Virus record (IMG/VR): IMGVR_UViG_643348547_000004
From: a virus
Taxonomy: Duplodnaviria > Heunggongvirae > Uroviricota > Caudoviricetes
Length of the DNA: 17,896 bases
Direction: 5' to 3' (one strand)
The first letter of the stretch is position 1. Each line of letters begins with the position of its first letter. Positions 10,377-17,896 of this stretch are shown piece by piece. The notes under the pieces are model-generated. The model was given only the letters and a program-made list of their open reading frames with translations. It did not search any database and was not told the DNA's origin. Made by a program: the position numbers and the translations under genes.

Positions 10377-13300
10377 ATGGGAAAAGGTGGCGGTAAGGCA
10401 CACACGCCTCGTGAGGCGAAGGATAATCTCAAATCCACGCAGATGATGAGTGTGATTGATGCGATTGGTGAGGGACCGATAGAAGGTCCGGTGAAGGGAC
10501 TGCAGAGTATTCTGGTGAACAAAACCCCACTGACGGACACGGACGGCAATCCCGTGATACACGGTGTGACCGCGGTCTGGCGTGCCGGGGAGCAGGAGCA
10601 GACACCACCGGAAGGCTTTGAGTCCTCCGGAGCTGAAACCGGACTGGGCGTGGAAGTGACGAAGGCAAAACCGGTGACGCGCACCATTACGTCCGCGAAC
10701 ATTGACCGCCTGCGGGTTACCTTCGGGGTGCAGTCACTGGTGGAGACCACGTCAAAGGGCGACCGTAATCCTTCCTCTGTCCGGATTCTGATTCAGTTAC
10801 AGCGTAATGGCCGCTGGGTGACGGAAAAGGATGTCACCATTAACGGCAAGACCACCTCGCAGTTCCTGGCCTCGGTGATTCTGGATAATCTGCCTCCCCG
10901 GCCCTTTAACATCCGGATGGTCAGGGAGACGGCGGACAGCACCACGGACCAGCTGCAGAATAAGACGCTGTGGTCGTCATACACCGAAATCATCGATGTG
11001 AAACAGTGCTACCCGAACACGGCCATTGTGGGGCTGCAGGTGGATGCGGAGCAGTTCGGCGGCCAGCAGATGACGGTGAACTACCATATCCGCGGTCGCA
11101 TCATCCAGGTGCCGTCAAACTATGACCCGGAAAAACGCACGTACAGTGGTATCTGGGACGGCAGTCTGAAACCGGCATACAGCAACAACCCGGCCTGGTG
11201 CCTGTGGGACATGCTGACTCACCCGCGCTACGGCATGGGAAAACGTCTGGGGGCGGCGGATGTGGACAAGTGGGCGCTGTATGCCATCGGGCAGTACTGC
11301 GACCAGACGGTCCCGGATGGTTTCGGGGGGACCGAGCCGCGGATGACCTTTAATGCGTACCTGGCACAACAGCGTAAGGCGTGGGACGTTCTCAGTGATT
11401 TCTGCTCTGCGATGCGCTGTATGCCGGTATGGAACGGTCAGACGCTGACGTTCGTTCAGGACCGCCCGTCGGATGTGGTGTGGCCGTACACCAACAGCGA
11501 TGTGGTGGTGGATGATAACGGCGTGGGGTTCCGCTACAGCTTCAGTGCCCTGAAGGACCGGCACACGGCGGTGGAGGTGAATTACACCGACCCGCAGAAC
11601 GGCTGGCAGACCTCCACGGAACTGGTGGAAGACCCGGAAGCCATACTGCGCTACGGACGCAACCTGCTGAAGATGGACGCGTTCGGCTGTACCAGCCGCG
11701 GTCAGGCCCACCGTGCCGGGCTGTGGGTGATAAAGACCGAACTGCTGGAAACGCAGACGGTGGATTTCACGCTCGGGTCTCAGGGGCTGCGGCACACACC
11801 CGGTGACATCATTGAAATCTGTGATAACGACTATGCCGGGACCATGACCGGCGGACGTGTCCTGTCCATCGATGCCGCCAGCCGTACCCTGACGCTGGAC
11901 CGGGAGGTGACACTGCCGGAGACCGGCACGGCCACTGTTAATCTGATTAACGGCAGCGGTAAGCCGGCGAGCGTGGCCATCACCGCACACCCCGCGCCTG
12001 ACCGGATACAGGTCAGCACCCTGCCGGATGGTGTGGAGACATACGGGGTGTGGGGACTCTCCCTGCCGTCACTGCGTCGTCGCCTGTTCCGCTGTGTCTC
12101 CATCCGGGAAAACACGGACGGCACGTTCGCCATCACGGCGGTGCAGCACGTACCGGAAAAAGAAGCCATTGTGGATAACGGTGCCCGCTTTGAGCCGCAG
12201 TCAGGCAGCCTGAACAGCGTTATCCCACCGGCAGTGCAGCACCTGACGGTGGAGGTGAGTGCAGCTGACGGTCAGTATCTGGCACAGGCGAAATGGGACA
12301 CGCCGCGGGTGGTGAAGGGTGTGCGCTTCAGTCTGCGTCTGACCAGCGGAAGCGGAGAAGACAGCCGTCTGGTGAGCACCGCCATCACCGCAGACACGGA
12401 GCACCGTTTCAGTGGTCTGCCGCTGGGGGAATACACCCTGACGGTGCGGGCCATTAACAGCTACGGCCAGCAGGGCGAACCTGCGACCACCACCTTCCGG
12501 ATTAACGCGCCTGCAAAACCCGCCACCATTGAGCTGACGCCGGGGTATTTTCAGATAACGGCGGTCCCGCGTCTTGCGGTGTATGACCCGACGGTACAGT
12601 TTGAATTCTGGTTCTCAGAAAAACGCATCACGAACACAGCACAGGTGGAAAAATCTGCCCGTTATCTGGGGACCGGCAGTCAGTGGACTGTCCAGGGGAG
12701 CCGGATTAAGCCGGGGACGGATTTCTGGTTTTACGTGCGAAGCGTCAACCTGGTGGGAAAATCTGCTTTTGTGGAAGCCAGCGGGCAGCCCAGCAATGAT
12801 GGTGAAGGGTATCTGGAAATTTTCCGGGGGCTGATAGATGAGACGCTTCTGGGCCAGGCACTGAAAGAGCGCATTGATGCTTCAGCGCTGCGTACGGAGG
12901 TCACGCAACTGGAAGAAGATATCCGTCAGCGGATGGACACGGATATTGCGGAAGTGACCCGGAAAATCGGGGAGGCGGAAAACAGCCTCACGCAGCTGGT
13001 TGCGAAAAAGAATGAGGACCAGACACTGGCCATCGCGCAGGTGAGCCAGAAAGTGGACCGGGTGAGCAGTGAAATCTCACAGACTGTCAGCCAGGGGCAG
13101 TCAGAAAACGCCCGACAGATAGCACAGGTCCGCCAGTACGTGGATGAAAAAGGGAGTGAAATTACCTCGACCACGGATAAAAAGCTGGGTGACCAGGCCG
13201 TGACCATACAGCAAATCCAGCGGGTTCAGTCAGACACGCGCAATGAGCTGAATGCCATGTATATGCTGAAGGTGCAGAAAACAAAAAACGGTATTCCCTA

Positions 13301-14069
13301 TGTGGCCGGGATTGGTGCGGGGATTGAGGATGTTGATGGTCAGACGCTGAGCAGTATTCTGCTGCAGGCGGACCGTATCGCGATGATTACCCCGGAGAAT
13401 GGCAACACCACGCCGCTGTTTGTGGCGCAGGGGAATCAGCTGTTCATGAACGACGTGTTCCTGAAGCGACTGTTTGCGGTGAGCATCACGTCATCCGGCA
13501 ATCCTCCTACGTTTTCCCTGACGCCGGATGGCAGGCTGGCAGCCCGCAATGCGGATATCAGTGGAGCCATCACGGCGAATACCGGCACGCTCAATAATGT
13601 CACCATTAACGAGAACTGTGTCATCAGAGGGAAACTGTCTGCAAACCAGATTGAAGGCGATCTCGTTAAAACAGTGGGTAAGGCTTTCCCCCGTGACTCC
13701 CGTGCACCGGAGAGGTGGCCATCAGGGACCATTACCGTCAGGGTTTATGACGATCAGCCGTTTGACCGGCAAATTGTTATTCCGGCGGTGGCATTCAGCG
13801 GTGCCAGACATGAGCGGGAGAATAACGATATTTATTCGTCATGCCGCCTGATAGTACGGAAAAACGGTGCTGAAATTTATAACCGTACCGCGCTGGATAA
13901 TACGCTGGTTTACAGTGGTGTTATTGATATGCCTGCTGGTCGCGGCCACATGACGCTGGAGTTTTCTGTATCAGCATGGTGGGTAAATGGCTGGTATCCC
14001 ACAGCAAGTATCAGCGATTTGCTGGTTGTTGTGATGAAGAAAGCCACTGCAGGCATCACGATTAGCTGA
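10377..14069 (+). CDS. J: Tail tip / host specificity protein J (1,230 aa)
   Basis: Extensive match to lambda J by recollection from the N-terminus ([22 protein letters not shown]..) through the fibronectin-like and C-terminal regions. RBS 'AGGGGAAGG' precedes the ATG. It is about 100 aa longer than lambda J because of an expanded coiled-coil segment. Confidence 0.9.
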
Positions 14070-14137: not shown

Positions 14138-14737
14138 ATGCGTAAATTATGTGCTGTTATTCTGTCCGCAGTAGTCTGGCTGGTTGCCGCTGGTACACCA
14201 GCGAGCGCAGCAGAGCATCAGTCCACACTAAGCGCCGGGTATCTTCAGACCCACACTGATATGCCAGGCAGCGATAATCTGAACGGGATTAACGTGAAAT
14301 ACCGTTATGAGTTTACGGACGCGCTGGGGCTGATTACGTCCTTCAGTTATGCCAATGCTGAGGATGAGCAAAAAACGCACTACAGCGATACCCGCTGGCA
14401 TGAAGATTCCGTGCGTAACCGCTGGTTCAGCGTGATGGCGGGGCCATCTGTACGCGTGAATGAATGGTTCAGTGCTTATGCGATGGCAGGTGTGGCTTAC
14501 AGCCGTGTGTCGACGTTCTCCGGGGATTATCTCCGCGTAACTGACAACAAGGGGAAAACGCACGATGTGCTGACCGGAAGTGATGACGATCGCCACAGCA
14601 ACACGTCTCTGGCGTGGGGAGCTGGCGTGCAGTTTAACCCGACCGAATCCGTGACCATTGATATTGCTTATGAAGGTTCCGGTAGTGGCGACTGGCGAAC
14701 GGATGCATTTATTGTTGGTATCGGATACCGTTTCTGA
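14138..14737 (+). CDS. lom: Outer membrane protein Lom (Ail/Lom/OmpX family beta-barrel)
   Basis: 199-aa ORF with a signal peptide (MRKLCAVILSAVVWLVAAGTPASA) and a C-terminus (..IAYEGSGSGDWRTDAFIVGIGYRF) matching the lambda Lom C-terminus by recollection. Position between J and stf is as in lambda. Confidence 0.9.
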   Translation: MRKLCAVILSAVVWLVAAGTPASAAEHQSTLSAGYLQTHTDMPGSDNLNGINVKYRYEFTDALGLITSFSYANAEDEQKTHYSDTRWHEDSVRNRWFSVMAGPSVRVNEWFSAYAMAGVAYSRVSTFSGDYLRVTDNKGKTHDVLTGSDDDRHSNTSLAWGAGVQFNPTESVTIDIAYEGSGSGDWRTDAFIVGIGYRF

Positions 14738-14842
14738 CAACAGACGCCGATTTATCTTCTGTAAATATTGTTATGATACGCAGGTTCATCCGCCTTATGG
14801 GGTGAACTGCGTTTGAGGAAACGTAAAGTTACACTGTCCTGA

Positions 14843-14875
14843 AGCCCGTGGCGTCACTGCTGCGGGCTTTTTTTA
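14843..14875 (+). terminator. Intrinsic terminator after lom
   Basis: Stem 'AGCCCG' (14843-14848) pairing with 'CGGGCT' (14863-14868), followed by a run of seven T. Confidence 0.6.
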
Positions 14876-14888
14876 TTGGTGGAAAAGT

Positions 14889-16949
14889 ATGACAGTAAAA
14901 ATTTCTGGCGTGCTTAAAGATGGCACAGGAAAACCAGTACAGAACTGCACCATTGTGCTGAAGGCCAGACGGACCAGCAGCACGGTGGTGGTGAACACGG
15001 TGGCCTCTGAAAATCCGGATGAAGCCGGGCGTTACAGCATGGATGTTGAGTATGGCCAGTACAGCGTCACCCTGCTGGTTGAAGATTTTCCGCCTTCACA
15101 TGCCGGGACCATTACCGTCTATGAAGGTTCCAGACCAGGTACGCTGAATGATTTTCTCGGCGCCATGACGGAGGATGATGTTCGTCCGGAGGCACTGCGC
15201 CGTTTTGAGCTGATGGTGAATGAAGTGGCACGTCATGCCGGAGCGTCATCACAGAGTGCAGCGGCGGCAAAGAAATCCGAAACGGCAGCAGCCTCATCGA
15301 AGAATGCGGCGAAAACCTCAGAAACGAATGCAGCTAACAGCGCACAGGCGGCAGCGGCCTCGCAGACTGCATCGGCAAACTCCGCGACAGCAGCCAAAAA
15401 ATCAGAAACCAGCGCGAAAAATAGCGAGACAGCCACAAAGGCCAGCGAAAAAAACGCAAAATCCAGCCAGACGGCAGCGAAAACCAGTGAGACGAATGCC
15501 AAAGACAGTGAAGCCAACGCAAAGGTGAGCGAAACAGCGGCGGCGAACTCGGCGAAAGCATCGGCAGCAAGCCAGACGGCAGCAAAAGCAAGTGAAGATG
15601 CTGCCAGAGAATACGCAAACCAGACAGCAGAGCCGTACAGATATGTTTTACAGCCGCTGCCGGATGTGTGGATACCCTTTAATGATTCGCTGGATATGAT
15701 TACGGGCTATTCTCCGGGTTATAAAAAAGTGAAGATTGGTGATAATGTGGTTCAGGTTGCCAGTGATAAACAGGTTAATTTCAGTCGCGCATCAACGGCA
15801 ACATATATCAACAAATCTGGCGAACTGAAAACGGCGGAAATTAATGAGCCACGATTTGAAAAAGAAGGTTTATTGATTGAAGGTCAGCGAACCAACTACA
15901 TGTTGAATTCAGCAACTCCAGCTTCTTGGGGTAAATCTGCAAATATGAATGTCGCTGAGGTTGGAACTGATAGTTTTGGTTTTACTTATGGAAAGTTTGT
16001 TTGTAATGAATCATTAATTGGGCAAAGTACAACCCTTAATATGGCAGTAGTTTCAACCTCGGGGGCTGTCGATGTATCAGGCGATAATAAGTGTGTGACG
16101 ACATCGTGCAGATTTAAAACGGATTTGGAACTCCTGTTAAGGATCAGGTTTGAAGCCTTCGATGGCAGCGCTTCATCTAATCTTGGATATGCCATTGTTA
16201 ATACGCGGTCTTTATTGGTTGAAATCACCGGTGTAGCTGCCGACAGGCTCACCGCACGAGTTAACAAAGATGAAGCTACGGGCTGGATTTTTGTAGAGGC
16301 AACGATTCAAGCAAGTAAAGAAACTTACATAACCTCTGCAATACAATACGCACCAAAAAAAGGTGGTGTCGTTGAATCTGGTGACTATATTTATCTGGCC
16401 ACCCCTCAGGTTGAGGATGGTTCGTGTGTATCATCTTTTATTATATCAGGAACGACGGCGGCGACGCGCGCAAGCGATATGGTTACAGTTCCGATTAAGA
16501 ATAATCTTTATAATCTTCCTTTTACGGTTCTTTGTGAGGTACATAAGAACTGGTATAAAACGCCAAATGCAGCGCCACGTGTTTTTGATACCGGCGGTCA
16601 TCAAACCGGAGCGGCTATTATTCTTGGCTTCGGATCTTCGGCAGATGGGCCAGACGGATTTCCTTATTGCGATATTGGTGGATCAAATAGGCGTGTTAAC
16701 GAAAACGCATCGTTGAAAAAAATGGTTATGGGGATGCGTGTAAAGTCAGATCAGTCTACATGTGCAGTAAGTAACGGGCGTATATCCAGCGAAACAAAAA
16801 CCACATGGGAATATATCCGGAGTACAGCAACCATTCGCATTGGTGGACAAACTACAGCAGGATTACGCCATTTATTTGGGCATGTGAGGAATTTTCGTCT
16901 CTGGCATAAAGAGCTAACAGATGCGCAGCTTGGGGAGGTTGTGGAGTGA
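14889..16949 (+). CDS. stf: Side tail fibre protein: lambda Stf-like N-terminus, Ser/Ala/Lys-rich repeat spacer, and an unrelated C-terminal domain
   Basis: The N-terminal ~120 aa (MTVKISGVLKDGTGKPVQNCTI..) match lambda Stf by recollection. Residues ~125-235 are low-complexity (K-SETNA-type) repeats. The C-terminal ~430 aa are AT-richer DNA and end in a motif (..HVRNFRLWHKELTDAQLGEVV) reminiscent of ConA/LamG-like domain termini. Confidence 0.85.
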   Translation: MTVKISGVLKDGTGKPVQNCTIVLKARRTSSTVVVNTVASENPDEAGRYSMDVEYGQYSVTLLVEDFPPSHAGTITVYEGSRPGTLNDFLGAMTEDDVRPEALRRFELMVNEVARHAGASSQSAAAAKKSETAAASSKNAAKTSETNAANSAQAAAASQTASANSATAAKKSETSAKNSETATKASEKNAKSSQTAAKTSETNAKDSEANAKVSETAAANSAKASAASQTAAKASEDAAREYANQTAEPYRYVLQPLPDVWIPFNDSLDMITGYSPGYKKVKIGDNVVQVASDKQVNFSRASTATYINKSGELKTAEINEPRFEKEGLLIEGQRTNYMLNSATPASWGKSANMNVAEVGTDSFGFTYGKFVCNESLIGQSTTLNMAVVSTSGAVDVSGDNKCVTTSCRFKTDLELLLRIRFEAFDGSASSNLGYAIVNTRSLLVEITGVAADRLTARVNKDEATGWIFVEATIQASKETYITSAIQYAPKKGGVVESGDYIYLATPQVEDGSCVSSFIISGTTAATRASDMVTVPIKNNLYNLPFTVLCEVHKNWYKTPNAAPRVFDTGGHQTGAAIILGFGSSADGPDGFPYCDIGGSNRRVNENASLKKMVMGMRVKSDQSTCAVSNGRISSETKTTWEYIRSTATIRIGGQTTAGLRHLFGHVRNFRLWHKELTDAQLGEVVE
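15255..15600 (+). repeat. Imperfect tandem coding repeats inside the tail fibre gene
   Basis: Reiterated ~21-24-nt units of the form 'aaaacctcagaaacgaatgca' / 'aaaaccagtgagacgaatgcc' encoding A/S/K/T/E-rich repeats. These generate spurious ORFs in other frames on both strands. Confidence 0.7.
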
Positions 16950-17224
16950 GAGATTTCACGTTGCGTTTCAGTGATAAAGCAGATTTCAGGGCATTTCTCA
17001 GGAAACTTAACTGGGAAGAGGACGAAGAGCTGCAGAATGCCATTCTGGTTGATGAGATTGGTTTTACGTTCAGTGAGTCAGGTGTTTCTGCTGACGGGGA
17101 GCCTGAATACACGCGAGACGAAGGGTACTTTGTTAATATTCGTCTTCTTGACGATGGCTTTGATGAATCCGTGTTCCGTGAGTGGGTGGTTACACCAGAG
17201 CGCCCGCTCAGGGAGTGGTTTTAA
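16946..17224 (+). CDS. Hypothetical acidic 92-aa protein, translationally coupled to the tail fibre gene
   Basis: GTG start at 16946 overlaps the stf stop (GTGGAGTGA) and is preceded by 'GGGGAGG'. The product is strongly acidic. I do not recognise the family. Confidence 0.55.
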   Translation: MRDFTLRFSDKADFRAFLRKLNWEEDEELQNAILVDEIGFTFSESGVSADGEPEYTRDEGYFVNIRLLDDGFDESVFREWVVTPERPLREWF

Positions 17225-17233
17225 GGGGAGCAG

Positions 17234-17530
17234 ATGGATATCACGCCGATACTTCATGCAATTTGTGCAGTAGCCGTGCAGGGGCTGGTCGGGTGCATTA
17301 CCGGTGACTGGGTTTACGGAGCGATAGCGGGTTGTACGTTCTTTATTGCCCGAGAACATACCCAGGCAGAATATCGCTGGATTAAGCGTTTTGGTGATGG
17401 TCACAGACAGAACATGCCGTGGTGGGGCGGTTTTGATCCGCGTGTGTGGAATGTGGCCAGTCTGATGGATTTTGTGGTGCCGGTGGTGGCCTGTGCGGGA
17501 TTGTATGGCTGTATGCTGATTTTTAGCTGA
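17234..17530 (+). CDS. Hypothetical small hydrophobic protein (98 aa, probably membrane-embedded)
   Basis: ATG at 17234 is preceded by the RBS 'AAGGGGAG' at 6-nt spacing. The product has hydrophobic N- and C-terminal segments (..ICAVAVQGLVGCITGDWVYGAIAGCTFFIA.. and ..LMDFVVPVVACAGLYGCMLIF). I do not recognise the family. Confidence 0.55.
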   Translation: MDITPILHAICAVAVQGLVGCITGDWVYGAIAGCTFFIAREHTQAEYRWIKRFGDGHRQNMPWWGGFDPRVWNVASLMDFVVPVVACAGLYGCMLIFS

Positions 17531-17556
17531 AAAAAAGGGGAGCACTCAGGCTCCCC
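17530..17556 (-). terminator. Intrinsic terminator for the convergent minus-strand DinI-like gene
   Basis: Stem 'GGGGAGC' (17537-17543) pairing with 'GCTCCCC' (17550-17556) around a 6-nt loop, followed on the minus strand by a run of seven U (plus-strand A-run 17530-17536). Confidence 0.6.
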
Positions 17557-17647
17557 AACCAGAAGAAGTCGCTTGAAACGACAAGCTCGTTGTTATGCCT
17601 TTTAAGAATGTCATACAAAACAGGTCATTACAGTGATTATGATCCCG

Positions 17648-17896
17648 TTATTGCATAAACCAGTCGTCCGCGGTTTGCCAGACTTCCTGTAGTGTTTCCT
17701 GTACGAACTCCAGTGCTGATTCTTTATCGACGGCTCTTAAAATGGTGAGTCCATCATTGCTGGCAGATTTAACGATCACATCTGCATCGTCATATCGCTT
17801 ACCTATGCGGCGCAGCATTTCTTGCTGCAGAGCAGGAACAGAACCTTTCGGCATTTTGCTGATTTTTTCTTTAGCGATACAGATCTCAACACGCAT
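17648..17896 (-). CDS. DinI-family protein (82 aa)
   Basis: Pattern MR.E..IAK..(17)..RI..(25)..ETLQE.W..ADDWF aligns with E. coli DinI as I recall it (MRIEVTIAK.. ..ILQETWESADDWF). The start codon lies at the last bases of the window. Confidence 0.75.

Follow-up and report, generated by a model that had tools for sequence, protein, structure and literature searches.

The fibre gene and the two small genes downstream

The window analyzed here, a stretch of 17,896 nucleotides (nt) from a Caudoviricetes record (IMG/VR IMGVR_UViG_643348547_000004), is the tail end of an Escherichia coli lambdoid prophage in which the side tail fibre gene (stf) is followed by two small open reading frames (ORFs), referred to below as ORF1 and ORF2. 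A preliminary description of this DNA, made from the sequence alone, had presented them as two coupled ORFs of unknown function; their coordinates and features were confirmed from the ORF list and the sequence. Our comparisons led to an explanation, which we hold with slightly better than even confidence, in which the two are separate modules that abut: ORF1 would be a trans-acting partner of the fibre tip, and ORF2 a mobile piece of inner-membrane cargo.

The fibre was found to be a mosaic, with a lambda Stf-type N-terminus (residues 1-131 matched Pfam phage_tail_N, E 1e-67; residues 1-94 matched the lambda tail fibre chain PDB 9e7m), then an Ala/Ser-rich shaft, and then a tip of approximately 430 residues (residues 257-686). 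This tip is an exchangeable cassette: it was shared at 36 to 100% identity over approximately 430 amino acids by fibres of lambdoid phages, Drexlerviridae, Tequintavirus, and Vequintavirus (blastp, tblastn), was also present in Dhillonvirus lateral fibres, and was all that these fibres had in common, their N-termini being quite different. Its middle part (window 15770-16520, fibre residues ~298-543) was related to the RcGTA head-spike fibre Rcc01080 (PDB 6tb9, E 4e-6), in keeping with an NCBIfam GTA_spike_fiber match at residues 329-528; the RcapMu tail fibre also matched mid-tip. For the IrisVonRoten homologue, a galectin-like fold at the C-terminal tip end has been described (PMC11990801). 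The window fibre also matched the tail-protein PHROGs 5939 and 1419. By Pfam, no Peptidase_S74 domain was detected in the window fibre or in the tip-cassette fibres of nimi, T5_ev219, and tuinn.

As the preliminary description had noted, the GTG start of ORF1 (16946-16948) overlaps the TGA stop of the fibre gene (16947-16949), forming GTGA (16946-16949). A GGGGAGG Shine-Dalgarno sequence lies 7 nt upstream, and the overlap suggests that ORF1 is translationally coupled to the fibre gene. Homologues supported the GTG start: they have an ATG at this position and share the N-terminus M-K/R-D-x-T-L-K/R-F. The product is highly acidic, as had also been stated (23 D+E versus 11 K+R residues; isoelectric point 4.25). 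Both the frame and the length (92 to 93 amino acids; 110 in rV5-like phages) were kept in 31 distinct sequences, down to approximately 33% identity, with 0.85 to 0.89 of synonymous sites differing (pS, saturated) against 0.25 to 0.37 of nonsynonymous sites (pN). By these measures ORF1 is under strongly purifying selection and is more than a chance ORF. Homologues were present in 176 phage records and 73 IMG/VR loci. Among the records, some labelled as Campylobacter or Listeria phages (MG065653-55, OR847733, OR848352) carry an rV5-like or T1/T5-like coliphage fibre together with ORF1; these are probably contaminant or mislabelled entries.

ORF2 starts 9 nt after the ORF1 stop, behind the sequence AAGGGGAG. 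Its hydrophobic ends and good ribosome-binding site had been pointed out before and were confirmed. An AlphaFold2 model shows three helices (residues 4-23, 26-53, and 74-97; mean predicted local distance difference test score [pLDDT] of 95). A ratio of nonsynonymous to synonymous substitution (dN/dS) of 0.15 to 0.19 marks ORF2 as a conserved gene under purifying selection and as more than a chance ORF. In a library of 1.84 billion proteins the family comprised 447 representative clusters at 50% identity, all members being stand-alone proteins of approximately 60 to 145 (mostly 90 to 105) amino acids, and the exact ORF2 sequence occurred on at least 1,000 contigs. Sequence alignments revealed an invariant loop, A-R-E-H-T-Q-A-E-Y-R-W ... 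R-x-N-M-P-W-W-G-G-F-D (residues 39-68), with H8, Q16, R40, E41, Q44, E46, Y47, W49, R58, P62, W64, and F67 as invariant residues; D79 was conserved in the helices along with H8 and Q16. The loop region 40-73 averaged 5.45 K+R residues, versus approximately none elsewhere, and because basic residues were so concentrated there, the loop is predicted to be cytoplasmic. ORF2 would then have its N-terminus in and its C-terminus out, with a periplasmic turn of just two residues. Neither a signal peptide nor a lipobox was found, and almost none of the protein was predicted to be exposed to the periplasm.

Both families are already catalogued, and both are uncharacterized: ORF1 matched phrog_1361 (E 2.7e-39, positions 1-92 of 92) and ORF2 matched phrog_1443 (E 1.9e-48, positions 1-91 of 97), each listed as "unknown function." The second-best PHROG for ORF1 was phrog_18574 (E 1e-4). 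Searches of Pfam-A (E up to 1) returned no Tfa-family match for either ORF, in agreement with the earlier statement that neither resembles lambda Tfa; the best match for ORF1 was to an unrelated family (E 0.076), and neither ORF scored above the threshold of any Pfam family. No match to either was obtained in NCBIfam, in PADLOC-DB (E up to 1), or in PDB sequence searches with the family profiles. The ORF1 model was a compact alpha/beta domain (pLDDT 83) for which Foldseek searches of BFVD retrieved only uncharacterized proteins of 64 to 121 amino acids from uncultured phages. Literature searches found no characterized homologue and no virion proteome containing ORF1; the rV5 proteome paper covers an S74 allele without ORF1.

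Linkage of ORF1 to the fibre tip

The same tip cassette lay upstream of ORF1 in all 77 loci examined, and in 75 its end and the ORF1 start lay no more than 30 nt apart. This linkage was observed in Nesevirus (lambdoid), tuinn (Drexlerviridae), T5_ev219, IrisVonRoten, and FFH1 (Tequintavirus), and nimi (Vequintavirus). In FFH1, which had the most divergent tip checked (36% identity), the 88-amino-acid protein that follows was still an ORF1 homologue (hhalign, 98.1%).

Two natural allele swaps carried the most weight. The fibres of rV5 (gp41) and nimi (nimi_170), two phages of the same genus, were 89.5% identical over approximately 900 amino acids, and the next gene was 99.5% identical (L155:16200-20018 compared with L004:1-4333; flanks 89 to 99% identical). 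The C-terminus of rV5 gp41 is a Peptidase_S74 domain (residues 1151-1202) with neither ORF1 nor any other small gene after it; the nimi fibre ends in the tip cassette, and ORF1 follows. Likewise, no small gene follows T5 ltf, the product of which is reported to end in a self-chaperone domain (PMC4728585), and IrisVonRoten, T5_ev219, and FFH1 have the cassette and ORF1 at the same locus. The DT57C fibres LtfA and LtfB also carry S74 domains (PMC4728585). ORF1 was thus absent where the sister-phage fibre allele ends in an S74 self-chaperone domain (rV5, T5).

Because ORF1 was present exactly where the covalent chaperone was missing, we read it as most likely a trans-acting assembly partner of the tip that belongs to a non-Tfa family, and we infer its chaperone activity from the linkage patterns and cassette swaps. 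Translated by coupling from the fibre message, ORF1 would be dedicated to the tip cassette of its fibre, most likely as an assembly chaperone, and it may stay bound as a small subunit of the tip or joint; its job would be equivalent to that of the C-terminal self-cleaving S74 domain of other fibre alleles and to that of Tfa in lambda and gp38 in T4. The suggestion in the preliminary description that ORF1 serves the non-lambda C-terminal domain of the fibre is supported by this comparative evidence and by gene position.

In many relatives ORF1 lies between a proximal and a distal fibre, an arrangement that the preliminary description had missed. A distal fibre of 166 to 586 amino acids is encoded directly after ORF1 in T1-like, T5-like, and many lambdoid loci, and in 42 of 78 E. 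coli loci such a gene separates ORF1 from ORF2; 30 of the 78 were window-like, with none between them. The first ~17 to 25 residues of the distal fibres were conserved (M-x-T-x-T-V-I-P-x-D-I-T-x-L-K) and the remainder was variable; in the examples listed in Table 1, the remaining 150 to 570 residues were unrelated or distantly related. The conserved N-terminal peptide gives the impression of a universal element for docking onto the proximal fibre.

This arrangement gives rise to another explanation, that ORF1 is a structural virion part and not a chaperone. As a small adaptor it would sit at the end of the proximal fibre and provide the joint at which the distal fibre docks, and the window copy would be what remains of a branched fibre after loss of its distal part. 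In its favor are the conserved distal-fibre peptide, the frequent placement of the distal fibre gene directly after ORF1, and a published model of IrisVonRoten in which a T-shaped distal fibre sits on a proximal fibre with a galectin-like C-terminal domain (PMC11990801). Several observations also weigh against our own reading of ORF1 as a chaperone. The BASEL record names the IrisVonRoten homologue (bas32_0023) a "tail fiber protein"; the tight linkage fits a structural tip subunit or a distal-fibre joint equally well; and ORF1 identity was only moderately correlated with tip identity (r = 0.68), such that a tip 90% identical to that of the window was paired with an ORF1 just 52% identical. 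This loose tracking implies that ORF1 does not follow the variable receptor-binding surface; ORF1 would probably contact the conserved C-terminal end of the tip instead, where the sequence reads R-H-L-F-G-H-V-R-N-F-R-x-W-H-K. The joint is nonetheless doubtful as the primary role. Under purifying selection, ORF1 persists without any distal fibre in the window type, in the L019 type (the two being 63% identical), and in rV5-like phages, where the next gene encodes the distal tail protein; its exchange with S74 self-chaperone alleles, moreover, is easier to reconcile with folding than with a joint. Since the window has no distal fibre, we favor an assembly function of ORF1 whose core would concern the proximal tip itself.

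Regarding nomenclature, PMC11990801 is inconsistent about the proximal fibre of IrisVonRoten, which is Gp22 or Gp23 depending on the passage (text versus Fig. 12 legend); in the GenBank record, bas32_0022 is the 796-amino-acid fibre and bas32_0023 the 92-amino-acid ORF1 homologue.

Distribution of ORF2 and its independence from ORF1

ORF2 was encoded in 56 of the 57 lambda-type loci with enough downstream sequence and in none of the 11 loci without a lambda-type fibre N-terminus, which included the T1-like, T5-like, and rV5-like phages; none of the virulent phages that share the fibre and ORF1 cassette had it. Conversely, ORF2 was found directly after receptor-binding genes of other kinds: (i) a P2-type fibre with an S74 domain in Leclercia, (ii) a pectate-lyase-fold spike in Citrobacter, (iii) T4 gp37-like distal fibres in Escherichia, and (iv) a tailspike in Desulfovibrio. 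In Chelativorans it follows a fibre of tail-protein PHROGs 5939 and 1419. In the P22-like phages JEP4 and 611R6, it lies between the tailspike and the integrase, once beside an OafA-type O-acetylase, and a further homologue was found in a 108-kb record with a parA gene that looks like a phage-plasmid. A search for a conserved partner gene of ORF2 found many unrelated clusters as its upstream neighbors, and PHROG searches with the small proteins upstream of it in Leclercia, Silvania, and elsewhere were uninformative. From these unrelated neighbors we take ORF2 to be no partner of ORF1 but mobile cargo that recurs at the 3' ends of receptor-binding clusters.

The preliminary description had also missed that ORF2 has homologues outside phages. 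Solitary chromosomal copies (approximately 45 to 59% identity) were found in Aeromonas (L078:6001-6309), adjoining pirin and with two lipid A acyltransferase genes 1 to 2 kb away, and in sphingomonads (L145:5010-5288 and L148:4878-5225), adjoining ligA and prmA. Neighbors of the chromosomal copies were housekeeping genes (ligA, prmA, pnp, thiC, and pirin), with no phage genes nearby.

ORF1 and ORF2 thus segregate independently and are not a functional pair. That they might be one, as a chaperone with its membrane anchor or as a toxin-immunity-like couple, is suggested by their adjacency and shared orientation, 9 nt apart in the window and adjacent likewise in the 30 window-like E. coli loci, and by Comamonas and Pantoea loci with a weakly ORF1-like protein (phrog_18574) upstream of an ORF2 homologue. 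The distribution already contradicts such a pairing, which we regard as highly improbable: no virulent lineage with ORF1 has ORF2, copies of ORF2 lacking ORF1 lie behind unrelated fibres and spikes as well as in chromosomes, and a fibre gene is often inserted between the two. The functional coupling implied by the preliminary description is contradicted by the same distribution.

The Comamonas and Pantoea prophage proteins in question (L099:4432-4998 and L106:4484-4999) are 171 to 188 amino acids long and precede an ORF2 homologue; their N-terminal ~90 residues matched phrog_18574, and a very remote ORF1-like domain is possible. The 188-amino-acid Comamonas protein was rejected as an ORF1 homologue after hhalign to the ORF1 profile gave a probability of 0.2%.

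At the ends of viral contigs or predicted prophages, ORF2 was frequently the last gene before the boundary: in 26 of 78 IMG/VR loci (L156-L233), the contig or prophage ended within 400 nt after ORF2, often approximately 30 nt after it.

Candidate roles of ORF2

We propose that ORF2 is not part of the fibre and would be a horizontally mobile, three-helix inner-membrane protein that temperate phages add behind their receptor-binding gene clusters, at the 3' end and whatever the cluster type. Most likely it would be nonstructural cargo that works within or at the inner membrane and targets a conserved membrane component, for example by excluding incoming phage genomes or by modulating a conserved host membrane protein. 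Exclusion of incoming genomes is our leading guess, and a tentative one; any activity of ORF2 we infer from its conservation, distribution, and predicted topology. Some findings sit uneasily with this proposal. The topology was derived solely from the positive-inside rule, and the chromosomal homologues, together with partial matches in Aeromonas jumbo phages, misfit a purely anti-phage role. No promoter-like site was found before ORF2 on the plus strand from lom onward, and in unrelated phages ORF2 begins right at, or within, the end of the receptor-binding gene before it. This abutment points to late, lytic-cycle expression rather than expression from the prophage, and expression in the lysogen is not assured.

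Those last points bear most directly on a more specific alternative, in which ORF2 is a lysogenic-conversion or superinfection-exclusion protein that is expressed from the prophage and either blocks genome entry of related phages at the inner membrane, as HK97 gp15, T4 Imm, or P22 SieA do, or alters surface glycan synthesis. Its restriction to temperate elements and absence from virulent phages with the same fibre cassette would fit, as would its frequent position at the predicted prophage edge, its tailspike-integrase slot in P22-like phages (once beside the O-acetylase), and its nature as a small, predicted inner-membrane protein; the fibre and tailspike types that neighbor it usually target surface glycans. 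We consider this possible, although unlikely as formulated. There is neither a promoter-like site nor intergenic room for one, the start abuts late genes in several phage types, and PADLOC-DB returned no match; moreover, the 55 to 60% identity between the E. coli and the Aeromonas or Comamonas copies, together with the solitary chromosomal copies, argues for a conserved cellular target rather than a phage-specific one.

Late expression would in turn suit a protein made in the lytic cycle with the receptor-binding proteins, such as a holin-like or lysis-timing protein. ORF2 is apparently cotranscribed with late fibre or spike genes, its size and three-helix layout are those of class I holins, and it weakly matched Phage_holin_8 (E 0.003) and the holin phrog_198 (E 0.04); the T4 holin gene t adjoins the T4 tail fibre genes, a positional parallel. 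The weak matches do not extend to the family, however, and on that ground membership in a holin family was rejected: the window ORF2 scored 18.1 bits against a Phage_holin_8 cutoff of 26.4, and just 4 of 65 family members reached E 0.1. The predicted N-in, C-out topology, with a large basic cytoplasmic loop and a C-terminal tail of 0 to 1 residue, differs from the N-out, C-in topology and charged cytoplasmic C-terminal tail of class I holins. ORF2 is also absent from lytic relatives, has chromosomal copies in housekeeping contexts, and has an invariant polar motif unlike the loosely conserved sequences of holins. A lysis role is accordingly improbable.

Two functions for ORF2 had been offered in the preliminary description, both under the heading of a membrane moron. 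Receptor masking is unlikely, as almost nothing of the protein is predicted outside the inner membrane and the conserved loop is predicted to be cytoplasmic. The idea of a moron holds in part. ORF2 behaves as accessory membrane cargo beside host-range genes and, as in morons, occurs in some but not all related phages, lies at module boundaries, and is independent of the fibre cassette. No promoter-like site was found before it, and the one strong hairpin downstream is oriented for the minus strand, so that the classic autonomous layout of a moron was not seen.

Comparison with known systems

In gene order, ORF1 resembles Tfa of lambda, gpU of Mu, and gpG of P2 (Caudo_TAP) and gp38 of T4, each a small protein encoded directly downstream of the fibre whose tip it serves. 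Like ORF1, such Tfa-type proteins are exchanged together with their tip, and the function proposed for ORF1 by analogy (tip folding or trimerization, possibly with the protein staying bound) is the same. No sequence relation was found, and ORF1 is acidic and, at 92 amino acids, about half the size of Tfa (~190 amino acids). The folds of the tips differ as well, that served by ORF1 having RcGTA head-spike-like and galectin-like parts. ORF1 was downstream of the tip and exchanged with it in all 77 loci, across four phage groups, which places it beside the Tfa-type proteins by analogy and not by membership.

The Peptidase_S74 chaperones of K1F, T5 pb1, DT57C LtfA/LtfB, and rV5 gp41 occupy a genetic position equivalent to that of the tip cassette plus ORF1, which by analogy suggests equivalent assembly roles. 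The S74 domain is covalently attached and self-cleaving, whereas ORF1 is made as its own polypeptide, lacks a protease motif, and shows no S74 similarity. The branched lateral fibres of the T5-like phage DT57C both use S74 domains, and no small gene has been reported there (PMC4728585). In the T5-like BASEL phage IrisVonRoten, Gp22 has the same tip cassette (62% identity) and is followed by the ORF1 homologue and then by the distal T-shaped fibre (Gp24). The same three-gene layout was found in many E. coli lambdoid prophages; the window differs in having no distal fibre gene.

HK97 gp15, T4 Imm, and P22 SieA are, like ORF2, small membrane proteins; they are encoded in tail-gene regions, as ORF2 is carried next to host-range genes of a temperate phage, and they reside in the inner membrane, as predicted for ORF2. 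No homology of ORF2 to these proteins or to Cor or Llp was detected (Pfam, PHROG, PADLOC), and ORF2 differs from exclusion proteins in having chromosomal homologues. Cor and Llp are receptor-blocking outer-membrane lipoproteins that are encoded next to receptor-binding genes, also in virulent phages; ORF2 is not predicted to be a lipoprotein. The seroconversion genes of P22-like phages (gtrABC, oac) share with ORF2 the tailspike-integrase slot it occupies in JEP4 and 611R6, and their products, too, are inner-membrane proteins. ORF2 has no relation to GtrA or acyltransferases, runs in the same direction as the tailspike gene that it abuts, and at 98 amino acids is too small for a typical transferase. 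Tail-assembly interference by Tai/anti-Tai (PMC11364771) was set aside: its genes precede the packaging module, and the section consulted holds nothing linking them to this locus.

By analogy, then, ORF1 would work like Tfa, gp38, or S74 while being a member of none, and ORF2 would resemble HK97 gp15, T4 Imm, and P22 SieA in kind only. A bolder synthesis, which we put forward as speculative, is that ORF1 founds a structurally distinct class of trans-acting fibre chaperones or adaptors, interchangeable with S74 domains in evolution, that license a plug-in joint at which T1-like, T5-like, and lambdoid phages can exchange distal fibres bearing the short conserved peptide at the N-terminus. On the same speculative footing, ORF2 would belong to a widespread cellular family of small membrane proteins, with an invariant cytoplasmic H/E/H/Q/E/Y/R/W motif, captured by temperate phages to act on a conserved inner-membrane machine of the host.

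Lateral fibres with this tip cassette occur in four groups of coliphages, several of them in wide use in laboratory collections, and a sizeable fraction of E. coli prophages carries them as well. Should folding or completion of the tip depend on ORF1, host-range engineering by tip swap must move ORF1 too. A ready rule for docking would be provided by the N-terminal peptide that the distal fibres conserve. ORF2, for its part, is very common, carries no family annotation, and is consistently attached to temperate-phage genes for host range; identifying what it acts on would reveal either an exclusion mechanism of a new type at the inner membrane or a small regulator, also new, of some conserved membrane complex.

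Genomic setting and transcription

The features of the window are collected in Table 1. Its last 1.2 kb was present at 100% identity in the chromosomes of several sequenced E. coli strains, where ORF1 and ORF2 are both annotated "hypothetical protein."

Table 1. Features of the window and of related loci (window coordinates, except where a locus number, L, is given)
Feature	Coordinates	Strand	Basis
J-like tip protein gene	10377-14069		
lom	14138-14737		
Strong intrinsic terminator after lom; fibre start codon only 18 nt on	14841-14870		Terminator scan
Side tail fibre gene, 686 amino acids	14889-16949	+	ORF list; Pfam
Fibre-tip cassette ("FIBC"), fibre residues 257-686, exchangeable	15657-16949	+	blastp/tblastn, NCBIfam, PDB 6tb9
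Shine-Dalgarno sequence GGGGAGG of ORF1, within the 3' end of the fibre gene	16932-16938	+	Read from sequence
ORF1, 92 amino acids, acidic, phrog_1361	16946-17224	+	
Ribosome-binding site AAGGGGAG of ORF2, purine-rich; overlaps the ORF1 stop codon	17223-17230	+	Read from sequence
ORF2, 98 amino acids, predicted three-helix inner-membrane protein, phrog_1443	17234-17530	+	
GC-rich hairpin and T-run, intrinsic terminator of the convergent dinI-like gene	17537-17556	-	Terminator scan
dinI-like gene, convergent	17648-17896	-	Pfam DinI, E 7e-17
Distal fibre genes after ORF1 in related loci (not in the window)	L002:4292-4792, L003:4289-6010, L079:6081-7805, L084:3918-4958, L087:4286-4990		

A consensus scan of the plus strand from lom to ORF2 (14700-17896) found no sigma-70-like promoter site; the scan was crude, and a weak or non-sigma-70 promoter is possible. 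Given the terminator after lom and no promoter-like site downstream of it on the plus strand, transcription of the fibre gene, ORF1, and ORF2 presumably depends on antiterminated late transcription. Read on the plus strand, the hairpin at 17537-17556 has an A-run preceding the stem and would stop the fibre-ORF1-ORF2 transcript only weakly, if at all.

Overlapping alternative ORFs (16971-17273 on the plus strand and 17078-17545 on the minus strand) had no support; the conserved frames were the annotated ones. Long spurious ORFs also arise from the fibre shaft (15220-15528 on the plus strand; 15233-15517 and 15334-15618 on the minus strand), which at window 15220-15640 (residues ~110-250) is a low-complexity Ala/Ser/Lys/Glu/Thr repeat with motifs such as SETAAxxAK.

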